A stretch of DNA of 35,160 nucleotides from Clostridiales bacterium (GCA_016281895.1 JAEEJM010000021.1:1-35160); one strand, 5' to 3'. Positions 130 to 27,663 are shown, counted from the stretch's first letter. Notes: a model not told the origin generated them from the letters alone. Program-made: numbers and translations.

Positions 130-132
130 GTA

Positions 133-193
133 AAATCACGTTATTTTTAAGAAAAGCGTGATTTCAATCACGGAATTCGTTATTTTTACGTGA
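133..193. promoter_or_regulatory. Operator-like pair of inverted repeats upstream of the leftward promoter
   Basis: AAATCACG (133-140) pairs with CGTGATTT (157-164). AATCACG (166-172) pairs with CGTGA (189-193). Both units contain TTATTTTTA in the spacer. Confidence 0.3.
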
Positions 194-366
194 GACGACC
201 TCCCCAAAAGTTACAAGCCGATAACTGTCTTTTATATATCTGATCTTTCCCGTTATTCTCTCCGGACATTCCCGGTTTTCGTGATATTGTGTTGCTGCCG
301 GCGGGAGACCGCGGCGGAATACATATAAGTGAGGGAAGGCTTATTCTCATAATCCGCCAACGCCCG

Positions 367-412
367 CATAGACCGTTCCGCCCGGGCGGACGCCCGGGCG
401 GAACGGTCTATG
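367..412 (-). terminator. Long perfect hairpin just downstream of the lipoprotein gene
   Basis: catagaccgttccgcccgggcg (367-388) is perfectly complementary to 391-412, giving a 22-bp stem. It starts 3 nt after the stop codon at 415-417. There is no clear U-tract. Confidence 0.55.
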
Positions 413-414
413 AA

Positions 415-1515: not shown

Positions 1516-1585
1516 AATCAGCCGGACCTTTCACATATGAGTTCGATCGGTTGTTTCATAATCCTTTTTGTCGGCAGTGCTGTTT

Positions 1586-4051: not shown

Positions 4052-4181
4052 TCTGACAAATCCTTTCTTTGTTTTTTTCGGCAGTATGCAGTCGGAGTCG
4101 GACTTCTGAACGAGCAATGGAAAAACGAATTGACTGCAGGATAGTCCGTTTAGATTATCCCGATGATCATCTCCGCCCTAT

Positions 4182-5129: not shown

Positions 5130-5130
5130 C

Positions 5131-6060: not shown

Positions 6061-6077
6061 AATGACATTCCCTCCGG

Positions 6078-6110
6078 CCGGACCGCGGCGCCTGGGCCGC
6101 CGCGGTCCGG
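6078..6110 (-). promoter_or_regulatory. Intercistronic GC hairpin between the binding-protein and permease genes
   Basis: ccggaccgcggcg (6078-6090) pairs with cgccgcggtccgg (6098-6110), giving a 13-bp stem. This placement is typical of hairpins that stabilise the upstream binding-protein mRNA segment. Confidence 0.4.
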
Positions 6111-6129
6111 GATGCCGGTGATCCCGTGA

Positions 6130-7155: not shown

Positions 7156-7252
7156 GGTGTGTATCCTTTCGTTTTTAAAGATTTTCAGAAACAAAGGTTT
7201 TCGGAAGCAAAGCTTTTCAGAAACAATAAGGCGTTAAAACCTTCTCAGAAAC

Positions 7253-7525
7253 AAAAAACCCGTCCCAACGAAACGCCGGGACAGGAAAGATCCTGCGGTG
7301 CCACCCTGCATGGTACTTGCGTACCCACTCACATACCCTGAGATATGTTTCTGTTGTTGTCGGAGTGCCGTCTCCGTCTCACATACTGGGCCGCAAAAGC
7401 GGCTGTTCAGCTTGCCCTCGGAAGTCCATTCGGAACCGGTCTTTCCTCCGCGATCTCACCGCCCGCGGCTCTCTGTACGAAAGGTTGCCGGACTTACTAC
7501 TCTTCCTCATCGGTTGTATTGATGC
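7253..7525 (-). promoter_or_regulatory. T-box riboswitch leader with probable tryptophan (UGG) specifier
   Basis: On the minus strand I see the stem I elements AGUAGUAA and AGAGAG...GGUGAGA. The specifier-loop context is CCGAA-UGG-A-CUUCC (UGG = plus 7426-7428). The T-box motif AGGGUGGCACCGCAG lies at plus 7293-7307. It is followed by the terminator GUCCC-loop-GGGAC plus UUUUUU (plus 7253-7285). Confidence 0.8.
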
Positions 7526-7529
7526 GCAT

Positions 7530-7558
7530 ATTCTATCACCGTCCGCGCGGCTTGTCAA
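7530..7558 (-). promoter_or_regulatory. Promoter of the T-box/ABC operon
   Basis: Minus strand reads TTGACA (7553-7558), a 17-nt spacer, then TAGAAT (7530-7535), with TGa immediately upstream as an extended -10. Confidence 0.7.
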
Positions 7559-7738
7559 GGGGTTTTTGAATATTTTTTCTTTTTTTCGGAAAAACGGCTG
7601 CCGCCGTCGACGCCGCGGCGCGCGTCTTCCCGCGGAGGAGCACGAACAATGACGAATCCGTTTTCTTCGAAAGCACCATCAACCCCGATCCTTCTTTCGG
7701 GAACCGCGCGGGAGCCCGGCCGCCCGACCGGGAAATAA

Positions 7739-7767
7739 TTGTAAACCGGTCCCGGGTGTGATATAAT
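7739..7767 (+). promoter_or_regulatory. Promoter of the 1486-aa protein gene
   Basis: TTGTAA (7739-7744), a 17-nt spacer, then TATAAT (7762-7767) preceded by TGa. This leaves a leader of about 195 nt. Confidence 0.6.
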
Positions 7768-7782
7768 AATAGGTAATGATTC

Positions 7783-7930
7783 AGTTCATATGATTTCTTC
7801 GCGGCTGCCGCGGTTTTTACGATCCGTCCGCTGTTACCCGAAGTTCATATGATCCGTTTGCCGTTTGCCGCGGCCAATGCGAGCCGCTTGCCGTTGCCGC
7901 GGTCCGCGCGATCCGCTCGCTAAAGCCGTT
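7783..7930 (+). repeat. Degenerate direct repeats and GC hairpins in the 5' leader
   Basis: AGTTCATATGAT occurs at 7783-7794 and 7842-7853. GATCCG(T/C) and (C/T)TGCCGCGG motifs recur every 25-35 nt. Confidence 0.5.
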
Positions 7931-7962
7931 TCTGCTTTACAATTTCCTTTCCGGAGGTCCTT

Positions 7963-10900: not shown

Positions 10901-12423
10901 CCGGCGCTCCCGGCAGCGGGACCGCGTCCGACGGCAACGGCGCGTCCGCCTTCATGACCGCGATCGTCTCGTCCGGCCGCTCGGTCACCTTCGTATGCGG
11001 CTGGAGCATCCCGGACGGCTTTGAGGCAGTGCGTGCCGGCATCGAGATAGAATCGCCCGACGGGCGCCTCTCGTACACCTCCCCGGCTCCCCGGGCGGAA
11101 AACGCCGGGACATATTACCTGACCAAAGGCTCCGCCGGAGGCACCGAGTGGCGGGCACGGGCGTACGCGTGTTACGCATCGCCCGACGGCAGGATATTCA
11201 CGGTCCGCGGCGAGACCGTGACGGGCAGCTGCGGCGCGGCGGCCTCCGATCCGGTATCCGCGTCGGTGCACGCGACTGTCGCCCTCGACGGGGGCGAGAC
11301 CGTGTCGACCTCAATGCGCGAGTTCTACGAGAGCGTCGTCGACACCTCGGACGACCTGTATCTGTACGACGAGATGGCAGATGACCTGCGCCTGCTGGCC
11401 GAGCGCCACGCCGACAAGAACATCCGCCTCGTCTCCATAGGCAAGAGCGTGCTCGGGCGCGATCTGTGGGTCATGGAGGTCGGCAACGCCGGCGCCCCGT
11501 ACCGCATGTTCGTCAGGGGCTCCGACCACGCCAGGGAGTTCATAAACACCGTCATCGTAATGAAGACCCTGGAGTTCTACCTCGAGAACTGGTACAACAC
11601 CGTCGGCGGCGAGCGCGTCTGCGACATCTTCGACAGCCTCTGCATCTGCTTCGAGCCCATGGCAAATCCCGACGGAGTCATGCTCTCGCAGCTCGGCCTG
11701 ACGTCGATCGAAGACCCGGCCCTGCGCGAGAAATACGCCGGGCTGCTGGTGCCCATAATGATGCGCGAGCAGGCAAAGATGGTCCGAGGCATCGACTACG
11801 ACGACGACCTCGACCTCTCCTCGGTGTGCGACGAGAACGGCATCTGGTGGGGCCGCTGGGCCGCCAATATAAACGGCGTCGACCTGCACCGCGACTACTT
11901 CGAAGAGACGCTGAAGATGTACAACACGGCCTTCAGGAACTACCTGGCCAAGCATCAGACGCCCGACATAAAGGACGCCTTCGGCTCCGGGGGGCTGTCG
12001 CAACCCGAGACGCAGGCCGTGGCCGCCTATGTGGCCAGGTACGGCTTCAACATGTCGTTCACCTACCATTCGTACTCGCCCTGCCTGCAGCTGCCCACGG
12101 CCCTCTGCGAGGCCGCACAGCTGGAGAAGAACTATGAGCTGATTGGTCTGCTGTCGCGGATCACCTCGTACAACCTCAACTCCAACACAGGCACATCGAA
12201 GGCCACGGGCACGAACGCCGGCTACAACAACTGGTTCATATGCAAGTACCCGCATACGGCCTGCTTCACGATAGAGACCGGCTACAAGCAGGTTGGAGGC
12301 GCCTCTGACAACACTCCGCTCAAGATGGTCCAGATAGAGCGGCTGTTCCCGCAGAACCGCATGGGACCCGTCATGGTCGCAATGAGCGCCCGCGACAGCA
12401 AGGCGGTCGACGCGCTCGACTGA
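7963..12423 (+). CDS. Secreted mosaic protein (1486 aa): Listeria-Bacteroides-type repeats, Gly-rich beta-helix-like region, C-terminal M14 zinc carboxypeptidase
   Basis: GGAGG lies 5 nt upstream of the ATG, and the N-terminus is Ala-rich and signal-peptide-like. Several segments look like Listeria-Bacteroides repeats (YTVSYDAGGG...FGGWKDG...AVYTAVW; WHLDG...GYSNGTWYTD; RFSGWDRP...ISAVYE). GGGN/SGG-rich repeats follow. The C-terminal domain has the M14 motifs SDHAREF (HxxE), ANPDG, YHSYS and TIETGY. Confidence 0.85.
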   Translation: MFASGQSGRRRFPALFRIRFTLSAAAAAALLLSALVTAPVAAAAAAGEAAADAYTVSSYAAGGAAAADAYTVSYDAGGGTGAVDPVRCEKGGFVALAWPDGLTGRDGLAFGGWKDGDGKIRQPGEMVRPSGDAVYTAVWVRPVTVYIDPAAGKSTNSGKTPSSPVSSITDAQSKVKSTYGYYGSVYSTTFVFMSPFETSSKGQTITVPVTITAAESTGGESDGDAALLTLGGTVLAKAPVWFRDISMKDSGSHNLCACGNPVRFTGISTPDGYTAANLFGAGSSVNYPAGTDVGSTAVPTSLFIESGSFNFVYGGGNTVSASDVCIEFSGGRAVSLFGGGNSAGVTGDVVVRVSGGSVGSLTAGGRASGVEGGCRLYIDGGEVASVSEGCGNGTSVIKNGTTVGCSGEFVPVSYSQNGAVGTVKVDLQYRFGDTMRLAYPDGLYLENRGLYRWTLGGRSYAPGDRFETGDTYLVFTPEWRVPYSVWVDQKNGSDSAKGTKAAPVRTLAAAYALLRDADGGGSVYTNVIHIVGTYKADAGEQTGGKPASLTDGTLELFELTAHADLRVACAVTGWGVLSSAGGNVRIEHRDACIGQIVSAGGVSVAAGHVRTVSGGGDLTVCGGTVDAAGFCGDIRLGSGTLGRADESNGVLTVTGGKLGGTSCAKTEILLTAGRSLEITGPAVCASYTGGGKLAITGSGKLEIGTHRGSPTEITAVPELSGAVAVSSPGSRSGLFYGAGVLASDGEWKTGTLVTWHLDGQTGRVFAEQDGSFTLPDISPAAGYSNGTWYTDAAMTRPYTGAPAAGALELWSPAAPNGACTLYLSTTSGSVDFGGREYSSALYSDMSSHSLREGSTVTLTAKETSSAPFICWLDETAGRVVSTGAVLEYRLSGDVRLTALFGNAVGNNCTVLFCDGGRVVSSLGIKRGSKLSEDQIPQPLELVPGRRFSGWDRPLTDPVTDSVIISAVYEAVPDRVTQTYTGAPGSGTASDGNGASAFMTAIVSSGRSVTFVCGWSIPDGFEAVRAGIEIESPDGRLSYTSPAPRAENAGTYYLTKGSAGGTEWRARAYACYASPDGRIFTVRGETVTGSCGAAASDPVSASVHATVALDGGETVSTSMREFYESVVDTSDDLYLYDEMADDLRLLAERHADKNIRLVSIGKSVLGRDLWVMEVGNAGAPYRMFVRGSDHAREFINTVIVMKTLEFYLENWYNTVGGERVCDIFDSLCICFEPMANPDGVMLSQLGLTSIEDPALREKYAGLLVPIMMREQAKMVRGIDYDDDLDLSSVCDENGIWWGRWAANINGVDLHRDYFEETLKMYNTAFRNYLAKHQTPDIKDAFGSGGLSQPETQAVAAYVARYGFNMSFTYHSYSPCLQLPTALCEAAQLEKNYELIGLLSRITSYNLNSNTGTSKATGTNAGYNNWFICKYPHTACFTIETGYKQVGGASDNTPLKMVQIERLFPQNRMGPVMVAMSARDSKAVDALD

Positions 12424-12909: not shown

Positions 12910-14436
12910 TCAGTTGCCCTCGACGGCCTTGTAAGAGGTCTCGATAAGAGTCACATAGTCGTTGAACATGCGCAGAGTGCTCTGGATCGGGCGCTTCTGC
13001 GATGCGGCCGCGGACGCCGCGGACGAGCCGCTGAACACGGCCGATATGATGGTGTCGACCGGGTTGAATATGGTATAGAGGTCGGAGATGTAATAGCCTA
13101 TGGTGTCCTTGATGGTGTCGAGCATCTCGGCGGTCTCGGCGTCGCTGGCGCGCTTGGTCTTCATGGTGAGCTCGTAGTAGGCCTCCATGGTGGTCGTGGA
13201 GGAGACGTACCCCCAGTAGTCCATGACGGCCGCCACGCGCTTCTTATCGACCTGGACCGAGTTCGGTATGCAGAACAGGGCGGAGTTGTTGTCGATCTTC
13301 TCGACGTACTCCTCCTGGTCGGAGTTGAACTTCGGGTTCATGACGATGCCGAAGCCGCGGGTCATGCCGACAAGGTCGCTGGAGGAGTCCATCGTGGTCT
13401 GGGTAAACAGGAAGTGGTCCTGAGCGAACAGGGCGCGGCCGCGGGCGAAGCTGTTCGGGAAGTCGCCTTCGATCTGGCCGAGGGTGTTGGCGTCGGAGTA
13501 TGTGATGCAGCTCTCGGGATCGTTCAGCAGGCTGTTGAGCTTCTCGGCGATCAGGTCGAGCCTGTCGATGTAGCCCTCCTCGGCGACGCATATGACCGGT
13601 TTGCCGTCGGCGTCCCTGCCGACCCACGGGATGCCGCAGCCGGTGACCATGAAGTTGCGGTTGGCCGAGGGCTCGGCAAGCATTCCGTAAGTGCCCAGGG
13701 TGCCTTCGGCGGCGTCGTTCTTCACGCTCCTGGCGAGCAGCAGGAAGTTGTCGAGCGTCCACTCGTTATCCTTGACGAACTGGTAGGGGCTCTTGAGGTT
13801 GTAGTCCTCGAGCACGCCCTTGCTGAAGAAGAACGCGCGGCAGGCCGCCACGTTGGCGACCGACACGTCGTTGGGCATTATGAAGACCCTGCCGCCCATG
13901 GTATAGGCCTTCAGAGCGTTGGCGTCCCACCATTTGGACGTCAGGTCGACGTTCTCCAGCGAATAGAAGTCATAGAGCAGGCCGTCCGTGGCGCTGGAGG
14001 AAAGGGTGTTGCGCTGGCAGATCATGATGTCGTAATCGACCTGCTCGCCGGCAATGTCCGTCTTGAGGGTCTTCTGGGGCGATTCCACCTCGCGGAACAC
14101 GAGGTTCACGCGGTACTTCTCCTCGACCATCCGGTTGCGTGAGGTCGACGCCTCGCTGACGATGTCCGTCCCCTCTTCGGTCGTTACGTAGCGGACCTTG
14201 TAGCTGCCGACGGTGTGGCTCCTCATGTAGACCGTGAAGTCCTCTCCGCCGTAGTCGGCGTCCACGAACTGCTTTTCGGTCTGCGCGGGTTCGCCGCTCC
14301 CGTCGCCGCCGGACTGGACGGCCGGTCTCTCCCCTGTCCCGCTGTCCGTACCGGTATCGGTGTTGCCGCACGCGCCGAGCAGCCCCGCGGCAAGGACGGC
14401 CGCGAGGATCAGCAGGGCTGTGATCGTTTTTTTCAT
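12910..14436 (-). CDS. Extracellular solute-binding lipoprotein (family-1-like, 508 aa), paralog 1
   Basis: Signal peptide plus lipobox (LLGACGN), with AAGGAG upstream. The region KWWDANALKAYTMGGRVFIMPNDVSV...NEWTLDNF resembles large sugar-type ABC binding proteins. Confidence 0.7.
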   Translation of the reverse strand: MKKTITALLILAAVLAAGLLGACGNTDTGTDSGTGERPAVQSGGDGSGEPAQTEKQFVDADYGGEDFTVYMRSHTVGSYKVRYVTTEEGTDIVSEASTSRNRMVEEKYRVNLVFREVESPQKTLKTDIAGEQVDYDIMICQRNTLSSSATDGLLYDFYSLENVDLTSKWWDANALKAYTMGGRVFIMPNDVSVANVAACRAFFFSKGVLEDYNLKSPYQFVKDNEWTLDNFLLLARSVKNDAAEGTLGTYGMLAEPSANRNFMVTGCGIPWVGRDADGKPVICVAEEGYIDRLDLIAEKLNSLLNDPESCITYSDANTLGQIEGDFPNSFARGRALFAQDHFLFTQTTMDSSSDLVGMTRGFGIVMNPKFNSDQEEYVEKIDNNSALFCIPNSVQVDKKRVAAVMDYWGYVSSTTTMEAYYELTMKTKRASDAETAEMLDTIKDTIGYYISDLYTIFNPVDTIISAVFSGSSAASAAASQKRPIQSTLRMFNDYVTLIETSYKAVEGN

Positions 14437-14593: not shown

Positions 14594-16123
14594 TCAGTTA
14601 CCCTCTATGGCCTTGTAGGAGGTCTTGAGATACTCGACCTGCTTGTCGTACTGGTTCATCGTGTATGTGATCATACGGGCCTGCTGGGCCGCGGCCGTGG
14701 CCGCCGACGAACCGCCGAACGTCTGGGATATTATGAAATCGACGCTGCCGAAGATGGTGAAAAAGTCCGAGATGTAGTATCCCACGGTGGCCTTGATCGT
14801 GTCGAGCATCTCGGCCGTCTCGGCGTCCGTGGCGCGCTTGAGCTTGAGGGTGAGGTCGTAATACGCCTCCATGGTGGTCCCGTGGGACTCCCAGCCCCAG
14901 TAGTCCATTATGACCGCCACGCGTTTCTTGTCCACCTGGACGGAATTCGGGATGCAGAAGATGGCGGAGTTGTTGTCGATCTTCTCCACGTACTCCTTCT
15001 GGTCGGAGTCGTACTTCGGATTCATGACGACGCCCACACCCTTCGGCATCTCGGTGAACTGTTTCGAGTCGCTGAGCGTGGCGTGCGTGAACAGCATGTG
15101 CCCCTGTGCGAACAGCGCTCTGCCGCGGTCGAACTCGTGGGCGAACGATCCCTCTATGACCCCCAGGGCGTTGGCCTCGCTGAAGGTTATGGCGCACTCC
15201 CTGTCCTTGAAGAGGGAGTTCAGCTTCTCGGCTATGAGGTCGAGCTTCGCGAGGTTGCCCTCCTCGGCGACCGAGATGACCGGCCTGCCTTCGCTGTCCC
15301 TTCCGACCCACGGGATGCCGCAGCCGGTGACCATGAAGTTCTGGTTGGCCGCCGTCTCGACCAGCATGCCGTAGGTGCCGAGCTCGCCGGCCGGCGAGTC
15401 GTTTCTGACGCTCCTGGCCAGGGCGATGAAGTTGTCCAGGGTCCACTGATTCTCCTTCACGTACTGGTAGGGGCTCGTGAGGTTGTAGTCCTCGATTATC
15501 GACTTGTTGAAGAAGAATATGCGGACTGCCGAGATGTTGGCTATGGAGACGTCGTTCGGCATGATGAACACCATGCCGTTGATGTCGTAGGCCTCCCTGG
15601 CGTTCGCGTCCCACCAGACGGTGTCAAGGTCCACGCCCTCCAGGCGGTTGAAGTCATAGAGCAGGCCCTTGGTCATAACCTCGGAGAGGCCGTTCCTGGC
15701 GGCGATCATTATATCGTAGTCGACCTGCTCGCCGGCGATGTCCGAAGCGAGCGTCTTCTGCGGCGATGCGGTCTCGCGGAACTCGAGCTTTACGTTGTAT
15801 TTGTCCTCGACCCTGTGGTTCCTGGTCGTCGAGGCCTCGCTGACGATGTCGGTGCCCTCGTCGGAGGTCACGTACAGCACCTTGTAGCTCTCGGTGTCGT
15901 GGCTGCGCATGTAGACGGTGAACTTTTCCCCTCCGTAGTTCGCCTCCCTGAACTTCGGGCCGGTGTCCTCCTGATCCCCGGACTGATCCTCCGCGGGACC
16001 TGCGGACTCTCCCGGGGGGACGGTGGTGATACCGCCGGCCTCGCCGCTCCCGCAGGATGCAAGAAAAGCAAACAGAACGAGGATCGAAAGAGCCAGAGCG
16101 GCGGCAGCTGTTTTTCTGATCAT
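14594..16123 (-). CDS. Extracellular solute-binding lipoprotein (509 aa), paralog 2
   Basis: Lipobox FLASCGSG. It is collinear with and clearly homologous to the 12910-14436 product along its full length. Confidence 0.7.
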   Translation of the reverse strand: MIRKTAAAALALSILVLFAFLASCGSGEAGGITTVPPGESAGPAEDQSGDQEDTGPKFREANYGGEKFTVYMRSHDTESYKVLYVTSDEGTDIVSEASTTRNHRVEDKYNVKLEFRETASPQKTLASDIAGEQVDYDIMIAARNGLSEVMTKGLLYDFNRLEGVDLDTVWWDANAREAYDINGMVFIMPNDVSIANISAVRIFFFNKSIIEDYNLTSPYQYVKENQWTLDNFIALARSVRNDSPAGELGTYGMLVETAANQNFMVTGCGIPWVGRDSEGRPVISVAEEGNLAKLDLIAEKLNSLFKDRECAITFSEANALGVIEGSFAHEFDRGRALFAQGHMLFTHATLSDSKQFTEMPKGVGVVMNPKYDSDQKEYVEKIDNNSAIFCIPNSVQVDKKRVAVIMDYWGWESHGTTMEAYYDLTLKLKRATDAETAEMLDTIKATVGYYISDFFTIFGSVDFIISQTFGGSSAATAAAQQARMITYTMNQYDKQVEYLKTSYKAIEGN

Positions 16124-16274: not shown

Positions 16275-17297
16275 TCAGTCCTCTCTTCTTCTCCTGACGG
16301 TGAAGAAGGCAGCGCCGGCGGCCATTATCGCGACCGCTGCGGTGACGAACCAGACGGCGTTGTCGCCGGTGGCGGGAGCGGTGGTCCCGGAACCGGATCC
16401 GCCCTGGGAGGCGTCTCCGCTGGCGGAAGTGGTGGTTTCGGATTCGCTCTGAGAAGCGACCGCTTCATATACGTTGAACTCGGTGAGTCTGGCGCAGTAC
16501 CAGAAGCCATCGACCTTGGGCAGATTGTTCGCGGCATCTCTTCTGGAGCTGACGCAGGCGTAGGCAATGTTGGTGACGCCCTTGTAAGTCTGCTTGAAGT
16601 CCGCGGAAAGCGTCCTGTACCAGTAGAAGTCAGTTGCGGGGTCGCTGCCCTGGACATGTTCCCAGTCGCCGCCTTTGTCTTTGAGCCAGAAAGAAGCCTG
16701 CATACCTTCCGTGGTGTCGTTGCCGTCCGCGTCCTTTTTGATGTTCAGTCTTGTGGACTCATAGGCGACGGTCCAGGTATTGCCGCCGTCCTGGGAAACC
16801 AGGATGTCGAAAGCCGAATCCGCCCACCATTCGGCAATGGGATAATTGATTATGTCTGTTTCTCCGCTCCAGAAGAGCTGGAAGCTGTCGACGTCGCAGG
16901 AAAGATCACTATACTGAATGTCGTAGAGATATTTTTTCGTGGAACCGTCGGCAAGCTTGAATTCAATGGTTCCCCCCTCTTTTTCAATCCGTGTGGCATA
17001 TTGAACTTGAGCTGCATAAGCTGTGCTGCTTGAATCGAGAGCCCAGACCTCGTTAAGATACTGCGCCTTTCTATTATTGTCAGGACTCCAGATAGTGCCG
17101 TCGGTGAGTTTCTTGTCGACCACTCCATTCGGTTTTTCGCCGTAAAGCTTGCCCTCCTTGCCGCTAAGGACGTCGACCTTGGTGCCGAGATCCTCTTTGA
17201 TCGGAGCCGTGGCCCAGTTTACAGTCGCTGCAAAAGCCGCGGGAGCGAAAGCAAGGATCATGAGCGCCGCGAGAATGATGCTGATAGCTCTTTTCAT
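16275..17297 (-). CDS. Surface protein P1: discoidin (F5/8 type C)-like ectodomain with a TGDN-type sortase-like C-terminal anchor
   Basis: Signal peptide MKRAISIILAALMILAFAPAAFA. Motifs AFDILVSQDGGNTWTVAYESTRL and ARLTEFNVYE resemble discoidin/CBM32 domains. The tail is APATGDNAVWFVTAAVAIMAAGAAFFTVRRRRED. Confidence 0.75.
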   Translation of the reverse strand: MKRAISIILAALMILAFAPAAFAATVNWATAPIKEDLGTKVDVLSGKEGKLYGEKPNGVVDKKLTDGTIWSPDNNRKAQYLNEVWALDSSSTAYAAQVQYATRIEKEGGTIEFKLADGSTKKYLYDIQYSDLSCDVDSFQLFWSGETDIINYPIAEWWADSAFDILVSQDGGNTWTVAYESTRLNIKKDADGNDTTEGMQASFWLKDKGGDWEHVQGSDPATDFYWYRTLSADFKQTYKGVTNIAYACVSSRRDAANNLPKVDGFWYCARLTEFNVYEAVASQSESETTTSASGDASQGGSGSGTTAPATGDNAVWFVTAAVAIMAAGAAFFTVRRRRED

Positions 17298-17414
17298 TGT
17301 TTTTCTCCTTATCGTTTATCCGGGATCAGAAACCCGGGAAGAATAAACCGTACGGGCGGAACTGCCGCGGTCGCGCCTTGGCGCGCATCCCGTGCAAGAC
17401 CTTGTGCCACTACT

Positions 17415-17443
17415 AGTATATATCACTATCTTATGATAGTCAA
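17415..17443 (-). promoter_or_regulatory. Promoter of P1
   Basis: Minus strand reads TTGACT (17438-17443), a 17-nt spacer, then TATACT (17415-17420). An ACTATC/GATAGT inverted repeat lies in the spacer. Confidence 0.5.
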
Positions 17444-17662
17444 GACTTTTAATAAAAAACACACCCTCCGATACAGCTTTTTTCACCGTTTTTTCAGTAC
17501 TCTTTCATACTGTTGTCGGACCTGTCCAAATCACGGCCCCGCCGGATGTGCACAGTGAACAAAACAGGCTGAAACAGGCTGAAGCGGCCCATGACCGGAG
17601 GCAGAAACAGATCCCGGGCACGGAAACCAAGGCCGGCGGCTTCGGAAGAGTTCCGTCCGGAC

Positions 17663-17704
17663 GAACGGAGGCCCCGGCGGACGGATCCGCCGGGGCCTCC
17701 GTTC
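17663..17704 (-). terminator. 18-bp GC hairpin downstream of P2
   Basis: gaacggaggccccggcgg (17663-17680) pairs perfectly with ccgccggggcctccgttc (17687-17704). There is no U-tract. Confidence 0.5.
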
Positions 17705-17751
17705 CGCGCTTTGCGCGGGAACGAGTTATCCGGAAGCTTCAGGCTGTCCCG

Positions 17752-18816
17752 TCAGCTTCTTTTTCTGCGGAAGACGACCGCGCCGGCCGCGGCTACCGCG
17801 AGAACGGGGAGCAGGGCAACGGAGTTCTTGCAGCCCTTCTTCTCCTCCTTGGGGGCCTCGGTGGCGGGAGCCTGGGTGGCCGGAGCCTGAGTCTCGGGGG
17901 CCTTGGTCTCGGGGGCCTTGGTCTCGGGAGCCTGGGTCTCGGGGGCCTTGGTCTCGGGGGCCTGGGTCTCGGACTCGGCGGCCAGCTTGTGGTTGGTTCC
18001 GTATACGTCGAACTCGGTGATCCTGGCGATGTAGTAGAAGGCGTTGGAGGTGAACGTGGTGGTTATGCCTTCACGCCTGGGGTTGACGCAGCCGTAGGCG
18101 ATGTTGGTGACGCCGGTGTACTCCTTGTTGAAGTCGGCGACGATATACCTGTACCAGTAGTACTCGGTATCGGTGGCCTTCTCGACATGGGTCCAGTCGC
18201 CGCCCTTGTCAACGGTGAACGCCGACATCTTGTCGACGACAGTTTTGCCCTCGGCGTCGGTGGTCCAGGTGAGTCTGGTGGACTCCCATGCCACGGTCCA
18301 GGTCTGGCCGTTGTCCTGGGAGACCAGGATGTCGAAAGCGGCGTCGGCCTGCCACTCGGCTACGGGCTTGTCACCGACGGAATAGTCGTTCTCGTTGCTC
18401 CACCAGATGGCGAAGCTGCGGACGTCGCAGTCGAGGCCTTCGAAATCCCACTCGTAGAAGTACTTCTTGACGGTGCCGTCGGTCATGGTGAACTCGCAGG
18501 TGCGGATGTCGTTCTTCTCGTCGTTGGTGGCGACTTCGACGGCGGAGGTGTCGCCGTCCTTCTTCTGCCAGGACTTGTTGATGTACTGGGCGGAGCCTTC
18601 CAGAGGCCTGCAGACGATGCCGTCGGTGAGGACGCCGCTTCCGTCGGGGCTGAACTCCTGGGTCGGAGCGTTCACAACGGCGATCTCGCCGTCAAGCACG
18701 TCGACCTTCCCGCCGAGATCAGCGTGGATGTAACCGTCTTCCGCCAGTGCGAAAGCAGGGACAGCCATGGAGAGCGCCAGCACGGCGATAAGAGCGAGAT
18801 AGAGTGCTTTTTTCAT
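17752..18816 (-). CDS. Surface protein P2: discoidin-like ectodomain, ETQAP/ETKAP linker, KKGC-TM-RRKR tail
   Basis: Signal peptide MKKALYLALIAVLALSMAVPAFA with AAGGAG upstream. It has FDILVSQDNGQTWTVAWESTRL and ARITEFDVYG. The tail is KKGCKNSVALLPVLAVAAAGAVVFRRKRS. Confidence 0.8.
   Translation of the reverse strand: MKKALYLALIAVLALSMAVPAFALAEDGYIHADLGGKVDVLDGEIAVVNAPTQEFSPDGSGVLTDGIVCRPLEGSAQYINKSWQKKDGDTSAVEVATNDEKNDIRTCEFTMTDGTVKKYFYEWDFEGLDCDVRSFAIWWSNENDYSVGDKPVAEWQADAAFDILVSQDNGQTWTVAWESTRLTWTTDAEGKTVVDKMSAFTVDKGGDWTHVEKATDTEYYWYRYIVADFNKEYTGVTNIAYGCVNPRREGITTTFTSNAFYYIARITEFDVYGTNHKLAAESETQAPETKAPETQAPETKAPETKAPETQAPATQAPATEAPKEEKKGCKNSVALLPVLAVAAAGAVVFRRKRS
17851..17970 (-). repeat. 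15-nt tandem repeat (8 units) encoding the P2 Pro/Thr/Glu linker
   Basis: Units of the form gggggccttggtctc run in register from 17851 and encode (E/A)T(Q/K)AP. Confidence 0.85.
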
Positions 18817-18893
18817 GTCTTTCTCCTTTTTTTGCTGTTAACTATCGGGCAAAAAGCTACCCGACGTGAGAACAAATATGTTCATACGTAACA

Positions 18894-18922
18894 ATTATAC
18901 ACTCGGAGGGCGGGATTGTCAA
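18894..18922 (-). promoter_or_regulatory. Consensus promoter of P2
   Basis: Minus strand reads TTGACA (18917-18922), a 17-nt spacer, then TATAAT (18894-18899) preceded by TGt. Confidence 0.7.
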
Positions 18923-18983
18923 GGGCGAACGGAAAAAGGGATGATGAAAAAATGAAGACGGGAAGAAGACGGCATGAAGAAGG

Positions 18984-19017
18984 AAAAAAGCGCGGCGCCG
19001 CACGGGGCGGCGCCGCG
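18984..19017 (-). terminator. Rho-independent terminator after P3
   Basis: The stem pairs cgcggcgccgc with gcggcgccgcg (18991-19017). On the minus strand it is followed by TTTTTT (plus 18984-18989). Confidence 0.7.
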
Positions 19018-19040
19018 GATGAGTTTATCCGGCAGTGGGC

Positions 19041-20093
19041 TTATTTCCTTTTTCTGCGGAAGACGGCCGCGCCGGCCGCGGCTGCCGCGAGAACGGGAAG
19101 CAGGGCGGCAAAGCTGCCGCAGCCCTTCTTCTCCTCCTTGGGGGCCTCGGTGGCCGGAGCCTGGGTGGCGGGAGCCTGGGTCTCGTGGGCCTGGGTGTCC
19201 GGAGCCTGGGTCCCGGGGGCCTTGGTCTCGGGAGCCTGGGTATCCGGAGCCTGGGTCTCGGGGGCCTGGGTCTCGGGCTCGGTCTCGACGGCCTTATGGT
19301 TGGTGCCGTACACGTCGAACTCGGTTATCCTGGCGATGTAGTAGAAGGGGTTGTTTGTGAAGACGGGCGTCGCGCTCTCGCGCCTGGCGTTGACGCAGCC
19401 GTAGGCGATGTTGGTGACTCCGGTGTACTCCTTGTTGAAGTCGGCGCTGATGTACCTGTACCAGTAGTACTCGGTGTCGGTGGCCTTCTCGACGTGGGTC
19501 CAGTCGCCGCCCTGTTCGACTGTGAACGCGGACATCTTGTCGACGGTCTTGTTGCCCTCGGCGTCGGTGGTCCAGGTGAGTCTCGTGGACTCCCATGCAA
19601 CGGACCAGGTCTGGCCGCCGTCCTGGGAGACCAGGATGTCGAAAGCGGCGTCGGCCTGCCATACGGCGACCACGGATTCGGGGACGGAGTAATCCTTCTC
19701 GTTGCTCCACCAGATGGAGAAGCTGCTGACGTCGCAGTCAAGGCCTTCGAAGTCCCACTCGTAGTAGTACTTCTTGACGGTGCCGTCTGTCATGGTGAAC
19801 TCGCAGGTGGCGTTGCCGGCGTTCTCGGCCTCGGTGGCCTCGGCGACGCTGCCGATCCAGCTCTTGTTGAAGTACATGGAGCTTTCAAGGGGCTTGCAGA
19901 TGATGCCGTCGGTGAGTCTGTCGTCAGAGTCCGGAGCGAAGTCTTTGTTGGGAGCGTTCAGCACGGCGATCTCGCCGTCGAGGACGTCGACCTTCCCGCC
20001 AAGTTCCGGGTAGACATAGTCGAACGCGGCGGCCGGGACGGCCAGAGACAGAGCAAGCAGCACGGCAAAGGTGAGTAACAGTGCTTTTTTCAT
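19041..20093 (-). CDS. Surface protein P3, a close paralog of P2
   Basis: Long stretches are identical to P2 (TCEFTMTDGTVKKY.YEWDFEGLDCDV.SF.IWWSNE.DYSV; GGDWTHVEKATDTEYYWYRYI.ADFNKEYTGVTNIAYGCVN). The tail is KKGCGSFAALLPVLAAAAAGAAVFRRKRK. Confidence 0.8.
   Translation of the reverse strand: MKKALLLTFAVLLALSLAVPAAAFDYVYPELGGKVDVLDGEIAVLNAPNKDFAPDSDDRLTDGIICKPLESSMYFNKSWIGSVAEATEAENAGNATCEFTMTDGTVKKYYYEWDFEGLDCDVSSFSIWWSNEKDYSVPESVVAVWQADAAFDILVSQDGGQTWSVAWESTRLTWTTDAEGNKTVDKMSAFTVEQGGDWTHVEKATDTEYYWYRYISADFNKEYTGVTNIAYGCVNARRESATPVFTNNPFYYIARITEFDVYGTNHKAVETEPETQAPETQAPDTQAPETKAPGTQAPDTQAHETQAPATQAPATEAPKEEKKGCGSFAALLPVLAAAAAGAAVFRRKRK
19140..19274 (-). repeat. 15-nt tandem repeat (9 units) encoding the P3 linker
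   Basis: Same repeat family as 17851-17970 but with one more unit and different variants. Confidence 0.85.
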
Positions 20094-20196
20094 GGGTCTC
20101 TCCTTTTTTTGTTTTTGTACCGGGCCGAACGGACCCGGCCGGGATGAATGCGCGGCCGCGGGTCATGCTCCCGCGCCGGCGCCCCGGCCGGTATTA

Positions 20197-20219
20197 CGTC
20201 GGACGGAAACCGACGTTTT
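20197..20219. terminator. Short hairpin between P4 and P3
   Basis: cgtcgg (20197-20202) pairs with ccgacg (20210-20215). The T-run is on the plus strand only, so it is at best a weak terminator for the minus-strand genes. Confidence 0.25.
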
Positions 20220-20223
20220 CAGA

Positions 20224-21288
20224 TTATTCGTACCTGCGGCGTCTGACGACGAAGGTCCCTACGGCGGCTGCCATGGCAAGTATGGCGGCGCCGGCGAACC
20301 AGACGGCGTTGTCGCCGGTCGGGGCGGAGGGAGCGGGAGTGCCGGAACCGGAGGAGGCGGGCTGAGCGTTCACGATCTCTTCATAGCTGAGGCCTACGCC
20401 CTCGACCAGCCTGAGGTTGTTGCAGTAATTGTGGCGCTCGTAGCCGTCTCTGCAGGATACGCCGAGCACGATGTCGGCGCCGTCCTCGGCGGTGTAGGTT
20501 ACCGCGCTGCCTTCGCTGTCGGCCTTGACCCATTTGTTCTGACCGTCGAGGTACCAGGCGCTCACGTCGAGGCCCTTGTATTCGACCTTCCAGGCGGTGA
20601 AGAAGACTCCGCCGGGATGGGTCTCGGTGGCATTCTCGTTGTTGATGGAGGAGCAGTTGTCGTTAAAGCCCGCGGGAAGCGCGATGTCGATGCGCTTCGG
20701 GTGTGAGGTGAGGCGGTGATCATCGGAGTAGCCCGTGCCGAGCAGGGTGTCGTCGCAGCTGTTGCGGTCATAGCAGAAGAAGGTCTCGGTCCATCTCTTG
20801 CCGTTGGCGTCCTTGGTGTCGCCCTCGTCGGAATAATGACCGGAGAGCATCACTATGCGCTTGTGGACGGGGATGCTGTCGTTGCCTTTCTCATCGTCGT
20901 CGGTCTTGGGATCGAAGTCGCCCGGCTCGCGCATGATGACTATGCCGGAGTATTTGGTGTGGTGCGGGGAGGCCGCTTCGAAATAAATGGTGTAATTGGT
21001 GTTCGCGGAGATCTTGTAGCCGGTCTCTTCGAAGTAGCAGAGCTGGCCGTCTTTGTCGCCGGTGGATTTCACGGGAAGGAGCAGATCCGAGGTGGAATTG
21101 GACAGGTCGTATTTCTCCTCGAATTTGACGGTCTTTCCCTTCCAGTAGTCGACGGTCACGAATTTGTCCTTGTCGGCTATCCAGTCGACTTTGAACAGGA
21201 GGTCGCCTTTTTTTGCCGAGGCCGTGACCGGAACGAACAGGGCCGCCGCCATGGCAAGAAGGATTACGAAAACGATCGCTTTTTTCAT
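20224..21288 (-). CDS. Surface protein P4: unrelated ectodomain with the same TGDN-type tail as P1
   Basis: I chose the start at 21286-21288 (MKKAIVFVILLAMAAALFVPVTASA) because it follows AGGAG; the ORF-track start at 21426 adds 46 implausible residues. The tail is SAPTGDNAVWFAGAAILAMAAAVGTFVVRRRRYE. Confidence 0.75.
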   Translation of the reverse strand: MKKAIVFVILLAMAAALFVPVTASAKKGDLLFKVDWIADKDKFVTVDYWKGKTVKFEEKYDLSNSTSDLLLPVKSTGDKDGQLCYFEETGYKISANTNYTIYFEAASPHHTKYSGIVIMREPGDFDPKTDDDEKGNDSIPVHKRIVMLSGHYSDEGDTKDANGKRWTETFFCYDRNSCDDTLLGTGYSDDHRLTSHPKRIDIALPAGFNDNCSSINNENATETHPGGVFFTAWKVEYKGLDVSAWYLDGQNKWVKADSEGSAVTYTAEDGADIVLGVSCRDGYERHNYCNNLRLVEGVGLSYEEIVNAQPASSGSGTPAPSAPTGDNAVWFAGAAILAMAAAVGTFVVRRRRYE

Positions 21289-21449: not shown

Positions 21450-21478
21450 ATTCTATCACAAAAACCACGGGTTGTCAA
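21450..21478 (-). promoter_or_regulatory. Promoter of P4
   Basis: Minus strand reads TTGACA (21473-21478), a 17-nt spacer, then TAGAAT (21450-21455) preceded by TGa. The leader of about 150 nt contains the hairpin ATTGATG-5 nt-CATCAAT (21313-21331) next to the RBS. Confidence 0.65.
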
Positions 21479-21496: not shown

Positions 21497-22213
21497 TCAG
21501 ATGGATTTTTTCGAAAGATAGTATACAGGCGGCATGCCCCCGGCGTAGAGATGCCCGATGTCCCCGAACGTGGCGAGCCGCGGCGACGTCACCGTGCCCG
21601 CATCGGCATTGTCGAAGAGGAAGGACGTCACTCCGGTGTAATTGGAGCCTATGGCCGAACCGAAGTAGTTGTAAGGGATGTGCAGCAGATGCGACATGAT
21701 GACCCTGCCCATGCCCGCGTGGGCGAACAGGACCACGTGGCGGTCGCTGCCCCCGGTGACCTCGTAGAAGCCCTCGGGAGTGCGGCGGTAGCCGTTCTCC
21801 GCCAGCAGGGCGTCAAGGCCTTCCGAGATCTCGCGGTAGCGCTCGGGAAAGCCGCTGTCGTTGAGGCCGGGGACCTCCAGCAGCTCCTCGCCGACCGCCA
21901 GGCGGCGGAAGCTCTCCCCGTGCAGATAGGTCACCGGGAGGTTCGATATCGCCTTCGGGACGCCGTCGGGGTAGGTCGTCTTAGACTCGCCGGAGAGCTC
22001 GCGGGCCCACTCGCACACCGTGACCCCGAGACCCAGGGCCTCGGCGAGGGGCGCGGCGGTCTCCCTGGCCCGCCCCATGGGCGACGAGTATATGCGGTCG
22101 GCTCCGCTTATGAGCATCCGCCGCGCGCACAGCCGCGCCTGTTCGATCCCCTCCGGCTTGAGGGTGTCCGTTACGTAATCGGGTTTTCCGTGTCTGATAA
22201 GATAAAAAACCAT
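21497..22213 (-). CDS. Histidine phosphatase family protein (phosphoglycerate mutase-like)
   Basis: The N-terminal LIRHGKP motif (RHG catalytic motif) and a later HAG histidine are present. Confidence 0.85.
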   Translation of the reverse strand: MVFYLIRHGKPDYVTDTLKPEGIEQARLCARRMLISGADRIYSSPMGRARETAAPLAEALGLGVTVCEWARELSGESKTTYPDGVPKAISNLPVTYLHGESFRRLAVGEELLEVPGLNDSGFPERYREISEGLDALLAENGYRRTPEGFYEVTGGSDRHVVLFAHAGMGRVIMSHLLHIPYNYFGSAIGSNYTGVTSFLFDNADAGTVTSPRLATFGDIGHLYAGGMPPVYYLSKKSI

Positions 22214-22304: not shown

Positions 22305-22742
22305 TCATTTCCCGCCGTCAGGTCTCCCTGACCCGACGCGCTCGGCGACGTATGCGGCGACGGCGGCGCAAAGCAGGCAGAGACCCGCGGCCGCGTAGAG
22401 GACCATAAGGCGGTTCGATGTGCCGTATATGTCAAGCACTCCCCTCAGCAGGCAGCCGAGCGTCAGCACGGCCACGGCATAGGTCTGGAACCTCGACGAC
22501 AGCCTGCCCGGAGGCGGTATGACTCCGGCCGCGCTCAGGGCCCACGGCAGGGCGCCGCAGAACAGCGGTACGGCGAAGGCGTAGACCATGTAATACGACC
22601 AGACTCCGTGTCCGAAGTGCTCGTAGACCGCGCCGAAGAGGGCAAAGAACGCCGAGGCGCAGACGTAGACGAGCGTCCTGCGCTGCGGCCGCGTGCGGTC
22701 CCGGACCTCGCGCGGAGGGCGAGGCTCAGCCGATATAAACAA
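22305..22742 (-). CDS. Small integral membrane protein, unknown function
   Basis: About four hydrophobic helices follow an Arg-rich N-terminus. The start is a TTG that overlaps the upstream gene's stop by 17 nt, so the exact start is uncertain. Confidence 0.5.
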   Translation of the reverse strand: MFISAEPRPPREVRDRTRPQRRTLVYVCASAFFALFGAVYEHFGHGVWSYYMVYAFAVPLFCGALPWALSAAGVIPPPGRLSSRFQTYAVAVLTLGCLLRGVLDIYGTSNRLMVLYAAAGLCLLCAAVAAYVAERVGSGRPDGGK

Positions 22743-25370: not shown

Positions 25371-25892
25371 ATGCCGCTGAACATCGATATCGTGCAGATA
25401 CTTCTGCACATGCTGAATTTCGCAATACTCGCGGGCGGTCTGACGCTGCTGCTCTTCTCTCCCGTCTCAAAATTCCTTGAGGAACGCCGGCGCCACTTCG
25501 AGGAGCTCGAGCGCGAAAACGCCGAAAAGGCCGCCGAGGCGGAACGGCTCCGCGAGGAGTACGAGCGCAAGCTCGCCGAGGCCGGCGACGAGATCGACAG
25601 GATGCGCGCCGAGGCCGAAAAGGAGGCCGCCGAGACCGCCAGACGCTACCTCGACTCCGCGAAAGAAAAGGCCGGAGAGCTCGTCTCGGGCGCCGAGGCC
25701 GAGGCCGAGGCGCGAAAGGCCCAGATCCTCGAATCGGCCCAGACCGAGATAAGCGAACTGGTCCTCACCGCCGCTCAGAAGCTGATCAGCTCCTCCGGCG
25801 ACGAGGAGCACACCAGGGCACTCTACGACGCCTTCCTGGAGGAGGCCGCGGGCGAGGAGCGCGCCTCCGCGGAGAGATCCGATGGGCGCTGA
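25371..25892 (+). CDS. atpF: F0F1 ATP synthase subunit b
   Basis: An N-terminal TM helix is followed by a long charged E/A/R/K coiled coil. It is 173 aa. Confidence 0.88.
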   Translation: MPLNIDIVQILLHMLNFAILAGGLTLLLFSPVSKFLEERRRHFEELERENAEKAAEAERLREEYERKLAEAGDEIDRMRAEAEKEAAETARRYLDSAKEKAGELVSGAEAEAEARKAQILESAQTEISELVLTAAQKLISSSGDEEHTRALYDAFLEEAAGEERASAERSDGR

Positions 25893-27663
25893 GGAATTCG
25901 ACCGCACCGAACCGGCCGGGGAGCCCCTGAGAGTCGAGATACGGTGCCTGGTCCCCCCGACCGATGAGCAGAAGGTCCGCATACGCGACTTCATGTGCCG
26001 CAGGTACGGCCGCTCCGACGTCAATCTGGCCGTCGTGCGCGATCCCTCCGTCGCCGAGGGCTTCAACATCTTCGTCGGCGACGACAACTACGACTGGACG
26101 GCCCTCGGCCGCGTCCGGCAGCTGAGAAGAAAGATCCAGCAGTCCTCCCTCAGGAAGGGCGGCCGGGACTTCATATCGCTGCTGCGCGAGGACATCGAGA
26201 GCTTCACCCTCGACGCGGGCTACCAGAAGGTCGGAAAGGTGCTGACCGTAAGCGACAGCATTGCCGTGACCGAGGGCCTCGCCGAGGCCGCGTACGGCAC
26301 CGTGGTCCTGTTCGAATGCGGGATCAAGGGTATGGTGCAGGACATCCGCGCGGACGGCACCACCGGCATAATCCTCTTCGGAGACCCGTCCGAGATCACG
26401 GCCGGCTCGAGGCTCGTCGACACCGGCCGCACCGCAGGCATCCCAATAAGCAACCGGGTCCTCGGGCGCATGATCGACCCTCTGGGCAGCCCGGTCGACG
26501 GAAAGGGGCCCGTCGAGGCCAAAAAATACTATCCCATTGAGCGGCCCGCGCCCGGCATTATGGAGAGGCGGCCCGTCAGCCGTCCGCTCGAGACCGGTAT
26601 CATGGCCATCGACTCTATGTTCCCCATCGGGCGCGGCCAGAGGGAGCTCATAATAGGCGACCGCCAGACCGGAAAGACCTCCGTCGCGGTCGACACGATA
26701 CTGAACCAGAAGGGAAAGAACGTCGTCTGCGTCTACGTGGCCATAAGCCAGAAGGCCAGCTCCGTCGCCTCGGTCATCCGCACGCTCGAGGCCGCAGGCG
26801 CCATGGAGTACACGGTCGTCGTCACGTCCCCGGCCAGCGACCCCGCCGCCATGCAGTACATCGCGCCGTACACGGGCTGCACCGTGGCCGAATACTTCAT
26901 GCGGCACGGCAGGGACACGCTCGTCATATACGACGACCTGTCGAAGCACGCCGTGGCCTACAGGACCATCAGCCTGCTGCTGGGCCGCGCGCCCGGCCGC
27001 GAGGCCTACCCCGGCGACGTCTTCTATCTCCACTCGAGGCTGCTGGAGCGCTCGGCCCAGCTCTCCGACGAGCTCGGCGGCGGAAGCATGACCGCCCTGC
27101 CGATAGTCGAGACACAGGCCGGAGACGTCTCCGCGTACATACCGACCAACATCATCTCCATAACGGACGGGCAGATCTTCCTTGACAGCGAGCAGTTCCA
27201 CTCGGGCCAGCGGCCGGCGGTGAACGTCGGTCTGTCGGTGTCCCGCGTCGGCGGCGCCGCACAGACGGACGTAATGAAAAAGTCGGTCGGCTCGCTGCGG
27301 CTCGACCTTGCCCAGTTCCGCGAGATGCAGGTGTTCTCGCAGTTCGGCAGCGAGCTCGACGAGCAGACCGAGAAACAGCTTCGCCACGGCAGCGCCCTCA
27401 TGCAGCTGCTGAGGCAGCCCAACCGCAGGCCGCTGGAACTCTGGGAGCAGGCGGTGGTCCTGCTGGCCGCCAGAGAGCGGCTGTTCAGCTCCATGCCCGA
27501 GGCACGGGTGCCGGAGGCCAAGCTCGACCTGCTCACCTGGTTCCGCCAGAACCGCAGTCTGCTCATCATCAGCATTCAGAACTGCAGGAAGTTCACTCCC
27601 GAGCTCGGCGCAGAAGTGACCGGGGCCGCTAAGGAGTTCTTCGCGTCGCACAGATATCAGTAA
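25882..27663 (+). CDS. atpA: F0F1 ATP synthase alpha subunit fused to a delta (OSCP) C-terminal-domain-like N-terminal segment
   Basis: Residues from about 93 onward are a standard alpha subunit (GDRQTGKTS Walker A, full length about 500 aa). Residues about 15-90 (VEIRCLVPPTDEQKVRIRDFMCRRYGRSDVNLAVVRDPSVAEGFNIFVGDDNYDWTALGRVRQLRRKI) align by eye with the C-terminal part of bacterial delta. The operon has no separate atpH. Confidence 0.85.
   Translation: MGAEEFDRTEPAGEPLRVEIRCLVPPTDEQKVRIRDFMCRRYGRSDVNLAVVRDPSVAEGFNIFVGDDNYDWTALGRVRQLRRKIQQSSLRKGGRDFISLLREDIESFTLDAGYQKVGKVLTVSDSIAVTEGLAEAAYGTVVLFECGIKGMVQDIRADGTTGIILFGDPSEITAGSRLVDTGRTAGIPISNRVLGRMIDPLGSPVDGKGPVEAKKYYPIERPAPGIMERRPVSRPLETGIMAIDSMFPIGRGQRELIIGDRQTGKTSVAVDTILNQKGKNVVCVYVAISQKASSVASVIRTLEAAGAMEYTVVVTSPASDPAAMQYIAPYTGCTVAEYFMRHGRDTLVIYDDLSKHAVAYRTISLLLGRAPGREAYPGDVFYLHSRLLERSAQLSDELGGGSMTALPIVETQAGDVSAYIPTNIISITDGQIFLDSEQFHSGQRPAVNVGLSVSRVGGAAQTDVMKKSVGSLRLDLAQFREMQVFSQFGSELDEQTEKQLRHGSALMQLLRQPNRRPLELWEQAVVLLAARERLFSSMPEARVPEAKLDLLTWFRQNRSLLIISIQNCRKFTPELGAEVTGAAKEFFASHRYQ

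Follow-up and report, generated by a model that had tools for sequence, protein, structure and literature searches.

Why should neighbouring genes that encode one kind of extracellular domain end in different anchors? The question is raised by a 35,160-nt stretch of DNA from a Clostridiales bacterium (GCA_016281895.1, JAEEJM010000021.1:1-35160; hereafter the window), in which four adjacent minus-strand genes, P1 to P4, each encode a protein with a typical Sec signal peptide at one end and, at the other, a hydrophobic C-terminus closed by a basic cluster. The organism is an uncultured Clostridium of the gut or rumen. An initial annotation, made from the sequence, described four surface-protein genes whose anchors do not follow their ectodomains, and attributed this to modular recombination within a locus for a variable, probably glycan-binding, cell-surface coat. 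The four open reading frames (ORFs) lie where it had placed them: P1 at 16275-17297 (340 aa), P2 at 17752-18816 (354 aa), P3 at 19041-20093 (350 aa) and P4 at 20224-21288 (354 aa). Its pairing of the tails, P1 with P4 and P2 with P3, also stands, and the tail strings that it quoted are exact.

The explanation that we favour, with a probability of roughly 0.75, is that P1-P3 are paralogs of a rare, uncharacterised Clostridial surface-protein family in which one ectodomain is carried on two interchangeable C-terminal modules, P4 being a bystander. P1 combines a short linker with a sortase signal, which implies covalent attachment to peptidoglycan. P2 and P3 combine a Pro/Thr/Glu-rich stalk of at least 50 residues with a tail containing a Gly-Cys pair (the GC tail), which would tether them to the membrane with the stalk spanning the wall; we regard the GC tail as a candidate for a Cys-type sorting signal of a new kind. 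A wall-linked form would need no spacer, whereas a membrane-held form would need a stalk long enough to cross peptidoglycan. The apparent shuffling would reflect old and repeated anchor replacement across the family, together with tandem duplication, rather than recombination inside the locus.

Paralogy and anchor replacement

Pairwise comparison places P1-P3 in one family, with 42% amino acid identity between P1 and P2 and 74% between P2 and P3, the latter over the full length including linker and tail. At the DNA level, P2 and P3 are 82.7% identical over 989 nt, with differences distributed evenly along the whole length; P3 is a recent tandem duplicate of P2, and the two share everything as plain duplicates do, rather than bearing the marks of the recombination within the locus that had been proposed for them.

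P4 stands apart, as the initial annotation had recognized for its ectodomain. Its similarity to P1 is confined to the last 46 residues (59% identity, E 1e-8), and its ectodomain, of unknown fold, shows no similarity to the P1-P3 family, profile comparison included, nor does the protein have a Pfam match or a sequence match in the PDB. Homologs of P4 form only two clusters among 5.8 billion proteins, both at unrelated loci and both ending in xxTGDN, a membrane segment and KRRRFE. Because these homologs at unrelated loci already end in a tail of the xxTGDN class, P4 is best read as a separate sortase substrate that neighbours the array only in this genome, and not as the conserved array member for which it had been taken. 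One ortholog, P0012 (L007 263-1792), carries an extra domain of ~150 residues, with no Pfam match, between the conserved ectodomain and the sortase tail.

A word-indexed homolog search yielded no more than nine relatives for the P1-P3 family and three for P4. An exhaustive search with an ectodomain profile, covering 1.84 billion representatives of clusters at 50% identity, found about 35 clusters of homologs, P1 itself being recovered as P0013 (E 5.6e-101). By C-terminal class the family comprises 23 GC tails, 10 sortase-type tails, two type I dockerins (PF00404 confirmed) and a few fragments; one member has an N-terminal lipoprotein signal and an extra C-terminal domain. These four kinds of anchor on one ectodomain bear out the earlier view that the proteins are secreted to the surface and that ectodomain and anchor assort independently. 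Searches of GTDB representative genomes and JGI metagenome contigs with back-translated family peptides were negative; the patterns were narrow, so that this is weak evidence of absence.

In a rough neighbour-joining tree built from the ectodomains, the proteins with sortase-type tails fall into at least five clades interspersed among those of GC type, a scatter which indicates that anchors have been replaced repeatedly. One P1-like gene, P0008 (L003 9758-10624), is called as 207 aa only, with its N-terminal third missing; antisense ORFs cover its upstream region, and it sits at a contig end beside feoAB. It may be frameshifted or a pseudogene.

The rival explanation of the locus is recent modular recombination or gene conversion among the four genes, giving a variable coat. 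In its favour, two tail types occur next to each other, an identical 25-nt stretch coding for TGDNAVWF is present in P1 and P4, and the 15-nt tandem repeats of the stalks could vary in copy number. The shared 25 nt belong to 58 nt of tail DNA at 84% identity between P1 and P4, and they consist of the preferred codons of a GC-rich genome. Outside the motif codons, however, the tail DNA diverges, both in the membrane segment and in the Arg codons (AGG AGA AGA AGA in P1, AGA CGC CGC AGG in P4), and because these differ we see no recent exchange between the two tails of the kind first supposed. Gene conversion between them was rejected on the same ground, agreement being limited to conserved motif codons, and their likeness is best explained as the generic sortase signal of the lineage, present in both. 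The orthologs of P4 that already carry this tail elsewhere, the even divergence of P2 and P3 and the identity of the locus in four assemblies likewise argue against recent recombination, which we consider very improbable.

The ectodomain and its two C-terminal modules

Pfam and NCBIfam scans assigned no family to the four ectodomains; no F5_F8_type_C or CBM32 model was matched, the Pfam F5_F8_type_C model remaining without a hit on any of the four proteins even at E ≤ 1. The string FDILVSQD.G.TW, formerly read as a discoidin signature, is instead an Asp-box (S-x-D-x-G-x-T-W), which takes the form SQDGGNTW in P1, SQDNGQTW in P2 and SQDGGQTW in P3, its S, D and G being invariant in 28 sequences. 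In the P2 ectodomain, D40, Y216, R222, R240 and E243 are invariant residues (numbered in the trimmed domain, 17986-18741, with 25 to be added for full-length P2). A first AlphaFold2 model, built from 10 sequences, was too poor for use, with a predicted local distance difference test score (pLDDT) of 67.8. With a 28-sequence alignment, the P2 ectodomain was modelled as a beta-sandwich (pLDDT 91.9, predicted template modelling score 0.91).

Foldseek returned no match to this model in the PDB at E ≤ 1e-3. Its leading hits were netrin and laminin LN domains, a Bacteroides fragilis F5/8-C domain, the carbohydrate-binding module of EndoS, CBM51 and the factor VIII C2 domain. The B. fragilis structure (3nng) reached a probability of 0.99-1.00, an E value of about 1e-2 and a template modelling score (TM-score) of 0.30-0.55, with similar values for LN domains and CBM51. 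On the strength of the model, the ectodomain of ~250 residues (residues 25-279 of P1, 16461-17225, from the family alignment; residues 26-277 of P2, 17986-18741) is predicted to be a galactose-binding-domain-like jelly roll with a single Asp-box. The lectin-like beta-sandwich anticipated in the initial annotation is plausible in view of the model and its structural neighbours, and a glycan-binding or adhesive role is likewise plausible for the modelled domain.

A BNR beta-propeller was ruled out: there is one Asp-box, the Pfam BNR model scores 11.7-13 bits against a cut-off of 27 on the single copy of the P1-P3 type, and the model is a sandwich. The distant matches of the family profile are BNR/Asp-box repeat proteins, reached through the Asp-box segment only, and these proteins themselves match Pfam BNR and Reelin_subrepeat-B.

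At the other end of the molecule, P1 has a short Ser/Gly/Thr linker and a tail at 16278-16376 that consists of PATGDN, a membrane segment and RRRRED, while the P4 tail at 20227-20322 consists of PTGDN, a membrane segment and RRRRYE. Both tails place motif, hydrophobic segment and basic cluster at the extreme C-terminus of a protein with a signal peptide. The NCBIfam model TIGR01167 (LPXTG_anchor; cut-off 15.9 bits) scores P1 at 23.2 bits for the full protein and 27.9 bits for the tail alone; P4 reaches 19.6 bits for the tail alone and 13.7 bits, just below the cut-off, for the full protein. Judged by these matches, the P1/P4 tail is assigned to the LPXTG class of sortase signals, in the form xxTGDN, membrane segment, RRRR.

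The second module is represented by the tails of P2 (17755-17838; KGCKNS, membrane segment, RRKRS) and P3 (19044-19127; KGCGSF, membrane segment, RRKRK). The P2 tail aligns with 20 other family tails, all 21 having been recovered through ectodomain searches and not through the tails themselves. This alignment has zero gaps, an invariant G-C and the consensus K-G-C-[GS]-S; the distance from the Cys to the start of the basic cluster is exactly 21 residues, and the protein ends 1-2 residues beyond R-K-K. No Pfam or NCBIfam model reached its cut-off on the P2/P3 tail, and the sub-threshold matches cover the hydrophobic segment and basic end only, the best being JDVT-CTERM (18.9 bits against 27) and MYXO-CTERM (11.8 bits against 20). 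The NCBIfam model 'lipo-invert' was rejected as the identity of the tail, having matched N-terminal lipoprotein signals only.

Tail class and linker length go together. Between the end of the ectodomain and the signature motif, GC-type proteins have 50-240 residues (median 63, n = 23) and sortase-type proteins 8-32 (median 15.5, n = 10), two ranges that do not overlap (Mann-Whitney p = 7e-6). The GC-type stalks are rich in Pro, Thr, Glu and Ala. The P2 stalk (17839-17985) is made of (E/A)T(Q/K)AP repeats encoded by 15-nt tandem repeats, delimited by Tandem Repeats Finder at 17851-17972 with a period of 15 and 8.1 copies; for the P3 stalk (19128-19292), the same program reports 19140-19277 with a period of 15/45. 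In another family member, P0028 (1010 aa), the GC tail (KKSGCKSAISAIAVIAVLVVAAGLILLSGKKGVK) sits inside the protein, with ~580 residues beyond it, either through gene fusion or through a missed stop codon.

Portability and possible processing of the GC tail

The GC module is portable, occurring on proteins unrelated to the P1-P3 family. One genome per GTDB species was searched with a DNA pattern encoding K-G-C-G-S, 18 residues, R-K-K and a single residue before the stop codon. The pattern gave 25 matches, for which we estimate roughly 8-17 by chance; 20 were noise, with internal stops or a hydrophilic intervening segment. The other five are clean ORFs of 420-625 codons, all with Pro/Thr/Glu stalks and none matching the P1-P3 family profile. 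Four are complete and all four have a signal peptide; the fifth (L018) runs off its locus. All five come from Clostridia, namely Ruminococcus, Eubacteriales and a yak-rumen Clostridia metagenome-assembled genome. On metagenome contigs, one of 34 matches was real and yielded a sixth GC-tail protein. The six ectodomains are mutually unrelated by BLASTP, and in a profile comparison between the family and the sixth protein the alignment is restricted to stalk and tail (probability 97%, E 8e-11).

Because the pattern would recover only ~1/10 of the family's own GC tails, client proteins probably outnumber those recovered by an order of magnitude. When the 5.8-billion-protein set was searched with a tail profile, five short proteins or fragments only were listed, without the family itself, and the result is uninformative on abundance. 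In two mini-proteins of 68-70 residues, P0062 (L011 368-574) and P0063, a short Thr/Pro linker joins a lipoprotein signal to a GC tail and there is nothing else; they could be remnants of genes or peptides anchored at both ends.

Several points weigh against the reading of one ectodomain on two anchor modules. The neighbour-joining tree carries no support values and includes P0008, a fragment. The linker-length statistic counts related sequences as independent, with no phylogenetic correction. All structural matches are weaker than E 1e-3, with TM-scores of 0.25-0.55, and so indicate a fold class, not a function, while the DNA pattern was built from the consensus and is hence silent on divergent GC tails. 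Finally, there is no sortase gene in the 35-kb window, so that sortase dependence is read from the signal itself. We regard a family with alternative anchors, one of them an undescribed, portable, Cys-containing stalk-and-tail module, as genuine. The analysis shows the homologies, the tail classes, the difference in stalk length, that the GC module is portable, and the fold class; the final cellular location of each form, and any processing of the GC tail, we infer.

How the GC tail acts may be answered in two ways. It may be a conserved membrane anchor and nothing else, its carriers being type I membrane proteins that undergo no cleavage and in which the Cys is structural or incidental. A hydrophobic segment of ~18 residues with a basic cluster suffices for stop-transfer anchoring, a long stalk is consistent with permanent residence in the membrane, and no cognate enzyme was identified among the window genes and the neighbours of GC-tail genes. 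Yet a plain anchor needs neither an invariant G-C, nor exact spacing, nor an end 1-2 residues past the basic cluster, and it would not be expected to pass, conserved as a whole, from one protein to an unrelated one in another genus. We consider a simple anchor quite possible, if short of probable.

Such features are familiar from a class of sorting signals described by Haft, comprising MYXO-, JDVT-, Synerg- and CGP-CTERM, in which unrelated carriers have a short signature built around an invariant Cys, then a membrane helix and then a basic cluster, and for which processing by CPBP/Rce1-like intramembrane proteases is predicted (bioRxiv 10.1101/2023.06.07.544157). Cleavage of MYXO-CTERM by a CPBP protease has been shown experimentally (PMC11980579). 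By this precedent (PMC11980579; bioRxiv 10.1101/2023.06.07.544157), the Cys of the GC tail could be modified, probably by lipidation, and a dedicated protease, with a CPBP/Rce1-like enzyme as the leading candidate, could cut away the membrane segment, after which the stalked protein would be anchored by lipid. Such processing would refine the favoured explanation of the locus and is compatible with it. It agrees with the tripartite and strictly C-terminal architecture, the invariant G-C, the fixed spacing and the presence of the tail on unrelated proteins, as well as with its interchangeability with a sortase signal and with a dockerin. The weak sub-threshold matches are to JDVT-CTERM and MYXO-CTERM, and the G-C-G-S-S context of the Cys resembles the lipobox context of lipoproteins in the same organisms.

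A search for a processing enzyme among the neighbours of GC-tail genes found a single CPBP gene, at one of six unrelated loci: at L023 4551-5516 (+), an Rce1-like gene (PF02517) lies ~1 kb downstream of an unrelated GC-tail gene. CPBP genes are common in Firmicutes, so this adjacency may be due to chance. The protein scores 25.6 bits against the MrtJ cut-off of 75 and is a generic CPBP member only; moreover, no CPBP gene occurs in the window or among the called genes of related family loci. These results, and the failure of every NCBIfam sorting model to reach its cut-off on the GC tail, count against enzymatic processing, which we consider possible, though slightly less so than a plain anchor.

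A fuller version joins these elements into one system, in which the stalk and K-G-C-[GS]-S would form an undescribed, enzyme-processed Clostridial sorting signal, the Cys being lipidated and the helix removed, so that paralogs come to reside in two envelope layers. Here the most plausible protease would be of the CPBP type and the product a C-terminally lipid-anchored protein. We judge this version rather unlikely as a whole.

Locus context and comparison with known systems

The window contains near-consensus promoter sites in excess around the array (9 observed against 2.3 expected in the region), and the individual promoters reported earlier for P1, P2 and P4 were recovered, all on the minus strand. 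The P2 promoter (18894-18922) is a full sigma-70 match, 12/12, with TTGACA, a 17-nt spacer and TATAAT; the P4 promoter (21450-21478) matches at 11/12 with an extended -10 TG, and the P1 promoter (17415-17443) at 10/12. An intrinsic terminator 3' of P3 (18991-19017, minus strand) has an 11-bp all-GC stem followed by a T-run. Read directly, the sequence between P4 and P3 contains neither terminator nor consensus promoter, and for this reason the P4 promoter possibly drives P3 too; P3 is probably transcribed by read-through. Riboswitches and other known RNA control were ruled out, the window having no Rfam matches.

The array was originally described as flanked by two solute-binding lipoproteins. 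Both genes in fact lie downstream of P1, on the minus strand, and the other flank is occupied by a histidine phosphatase gene (21497-22213, minus strand; PF00300, E 6.5e-18), found in the same position in related contigs L004 and L037. The nearer lipoprotein (14594-16123, 509 aa) has the lipobox LASC and a weak match to SBP_bac_1 (27.4 bits, cut-off 26). The second (12910-14436, 508 aa), 65% identical to it, has the lipobox LGAC and scores 14.7 bits, below the same cut-off. Sequence searches found no PDB relative, and no cognate permease or ATPase genes are adjacent to the two lipoprotein genes; the nearest ATP-binding cassette (ABC) system (4341-7194) comes with a binding protein of its own, which belongs to another family (ABC_sub_bind).

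The gene order of the locus was assembled independently in three other samples, which rules out an assembly artefact or collapsed paralogs, named at the outset as a possible refutation. Related contigs keep the order small membrane protein, histidine phosphatase, paralog array and lipoprotein of ~507 residues, the whole of which is never spanned by any single related contig. In L001, a lipoprotein 61% identical to the product of 14594-16123 is placed after the paralog array. The link between the array and the binding lipoproteins is conserved mainly among close relatives, with one distant echo (L063), and because the organisms are close relatives, synteny alone is weak evidence of a functional link.

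In that distant echo, a lipoprotein homologous to those of the window (25% identity, E 2e-33) precedes an unrelated GC-tail protein, which is followed by a lipoprotein of the endonuclease/exonuclease/phosphatase family homologous to one beside family member P0014. The same trio, a binding-protein-like lipoprotein of ~500 aa, a GC-tail protein and an endonuclease/exonuclease/phosphatase-family lipoprotein of ~570-600 aa, occurs at L063 6025-10506 and L008 10001-12891. The homologies hold across these distant contigs despite differing GC-tail ectodomains, which hints at a recurring partnership of the three proteins.

Other features of the window were recorded alongside. A multi-pass membrane protein of 145 aa, without a Pfam family, is encoded directly upstream of the histidine phosphatase (22305-22742, minus strand; also L004 1-420 and L037 6075-6512). 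Positions 1-4000 have a G+C content of 45-49%, against 58-68% over most of the remaining window, where one further dip (53.5%) occurs at 7001-8000. This low-G+C stretch, which may have been acquired horizontally, codes for an 843-aa secreted protein (1586-4117, minus strand) and a 366-aa lipoprotein (415-1515, minus strand), both lacking a Pfam match. A gene at 7963-12423 (+) separates the binding lipoproteins from the ABC transporter, which adjoin in L001, and looks like an insertion relative to related loci; its 1486-aa product combines an M14 carboxypeptidase domain with a Listeria-Bacteroides repeat. An ATP synthase alpha-subunit ORF of 593 aa (25882-27663, plus strand; L037 1154-2935) has a weak match to OSCP, the delta subunit, and may be a delta-alpha fusion.

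Which proteins gut and rumen Clostridia display on their surface is mostly deduced from sortase signals, dockerins, lipoproteins and S-layer homology domains. Another portable anchor module would help to predict where many functionally uncharacterised proteins of uncultured Firmicutes are located. The module can be recognised by its sequence alone, as a Pro/Thr stalk of 50 residues or more that leads into K-G-C-G-S, a membrane segment and R-K-K. If the GC tail is processed, Cys-dependent sorting systems of the CPBP type would extend to Clostridia, and if the fuller lipid-anchored scheme is true, the same binding domain would be present in two envelope layers, on the wall and on a membrane stalk. 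The occurrence of one ectodomain with wall-linked, membrane-stalked and dockerin anchors offers a natural experiment through which the effect of anchoring depth on function becomes accessible.

Compared with known systems, the ectodomain falls closest to the galactose-binding-domain-like folds (F5/8 type C, CBM32, CBM51, LN and reelin subrepeat B), to which all the best structural neighbours of the P2 model belong; reelin subrepeat B is an Asp-box-bearing jelly roll, and its Pfam model is matched by the distant Asp-box proteins that the family profile reaches. It differs from them in matching no sequence model and in Foldseek E values that all lie above 1e-3. The P1/P4 tails share motif, hydrophobic segment, Arg cluster and C-terminal position with LPXTG-class signals, including Clostridial variants such as NCBIfam Rumino_NPXTG, and differ in that only T-G-D-N is constant, the Pro at position 2 being variable (SAPTG in P4, AAETG in one ortholog).

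The GC tail resembles MYXO-, JDVT-, Synerg- and CGP-CTERM in its invariant Cys, membrane helix, basic C-terminal cluster and unrelated carriers. Firmicutes and Clostridia go unmentioned in the paper that defines these four signals (bioRxiv 10.1101/2023.06.07.544157), and the lineages named for Cys-type signals are Myxococcota and Pseudomonadota (bioRxiv 10.1101/2023.06.07.544157; PMC11980579). Unlike those signals, the GC tail occurs in Clostridia, has the signature K-G-C-[GS]-S and a Lys-rich basic cluster, is always preceded by a long Pro/Thr stalk and is reached by no existing model.

As a whole, the arrangement had been thought to correspond to no described system. Families with alternative sorting signals are, however, already named 'choice-of-anchor' in NCBIfam, and the likeness is that a homologous extracellular domain is joined to different C-terminal sorting signals among members, while none of the existing choice-of-anchor models in NCBIfam is matched by the proteins described here. 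The present family differs from these in its set of alternatives, a sortase signal, a dockerin, a lipoprotein signal and an undescribed tail, and in the coexistence of two anchor types in tandem paralogs of one genome.

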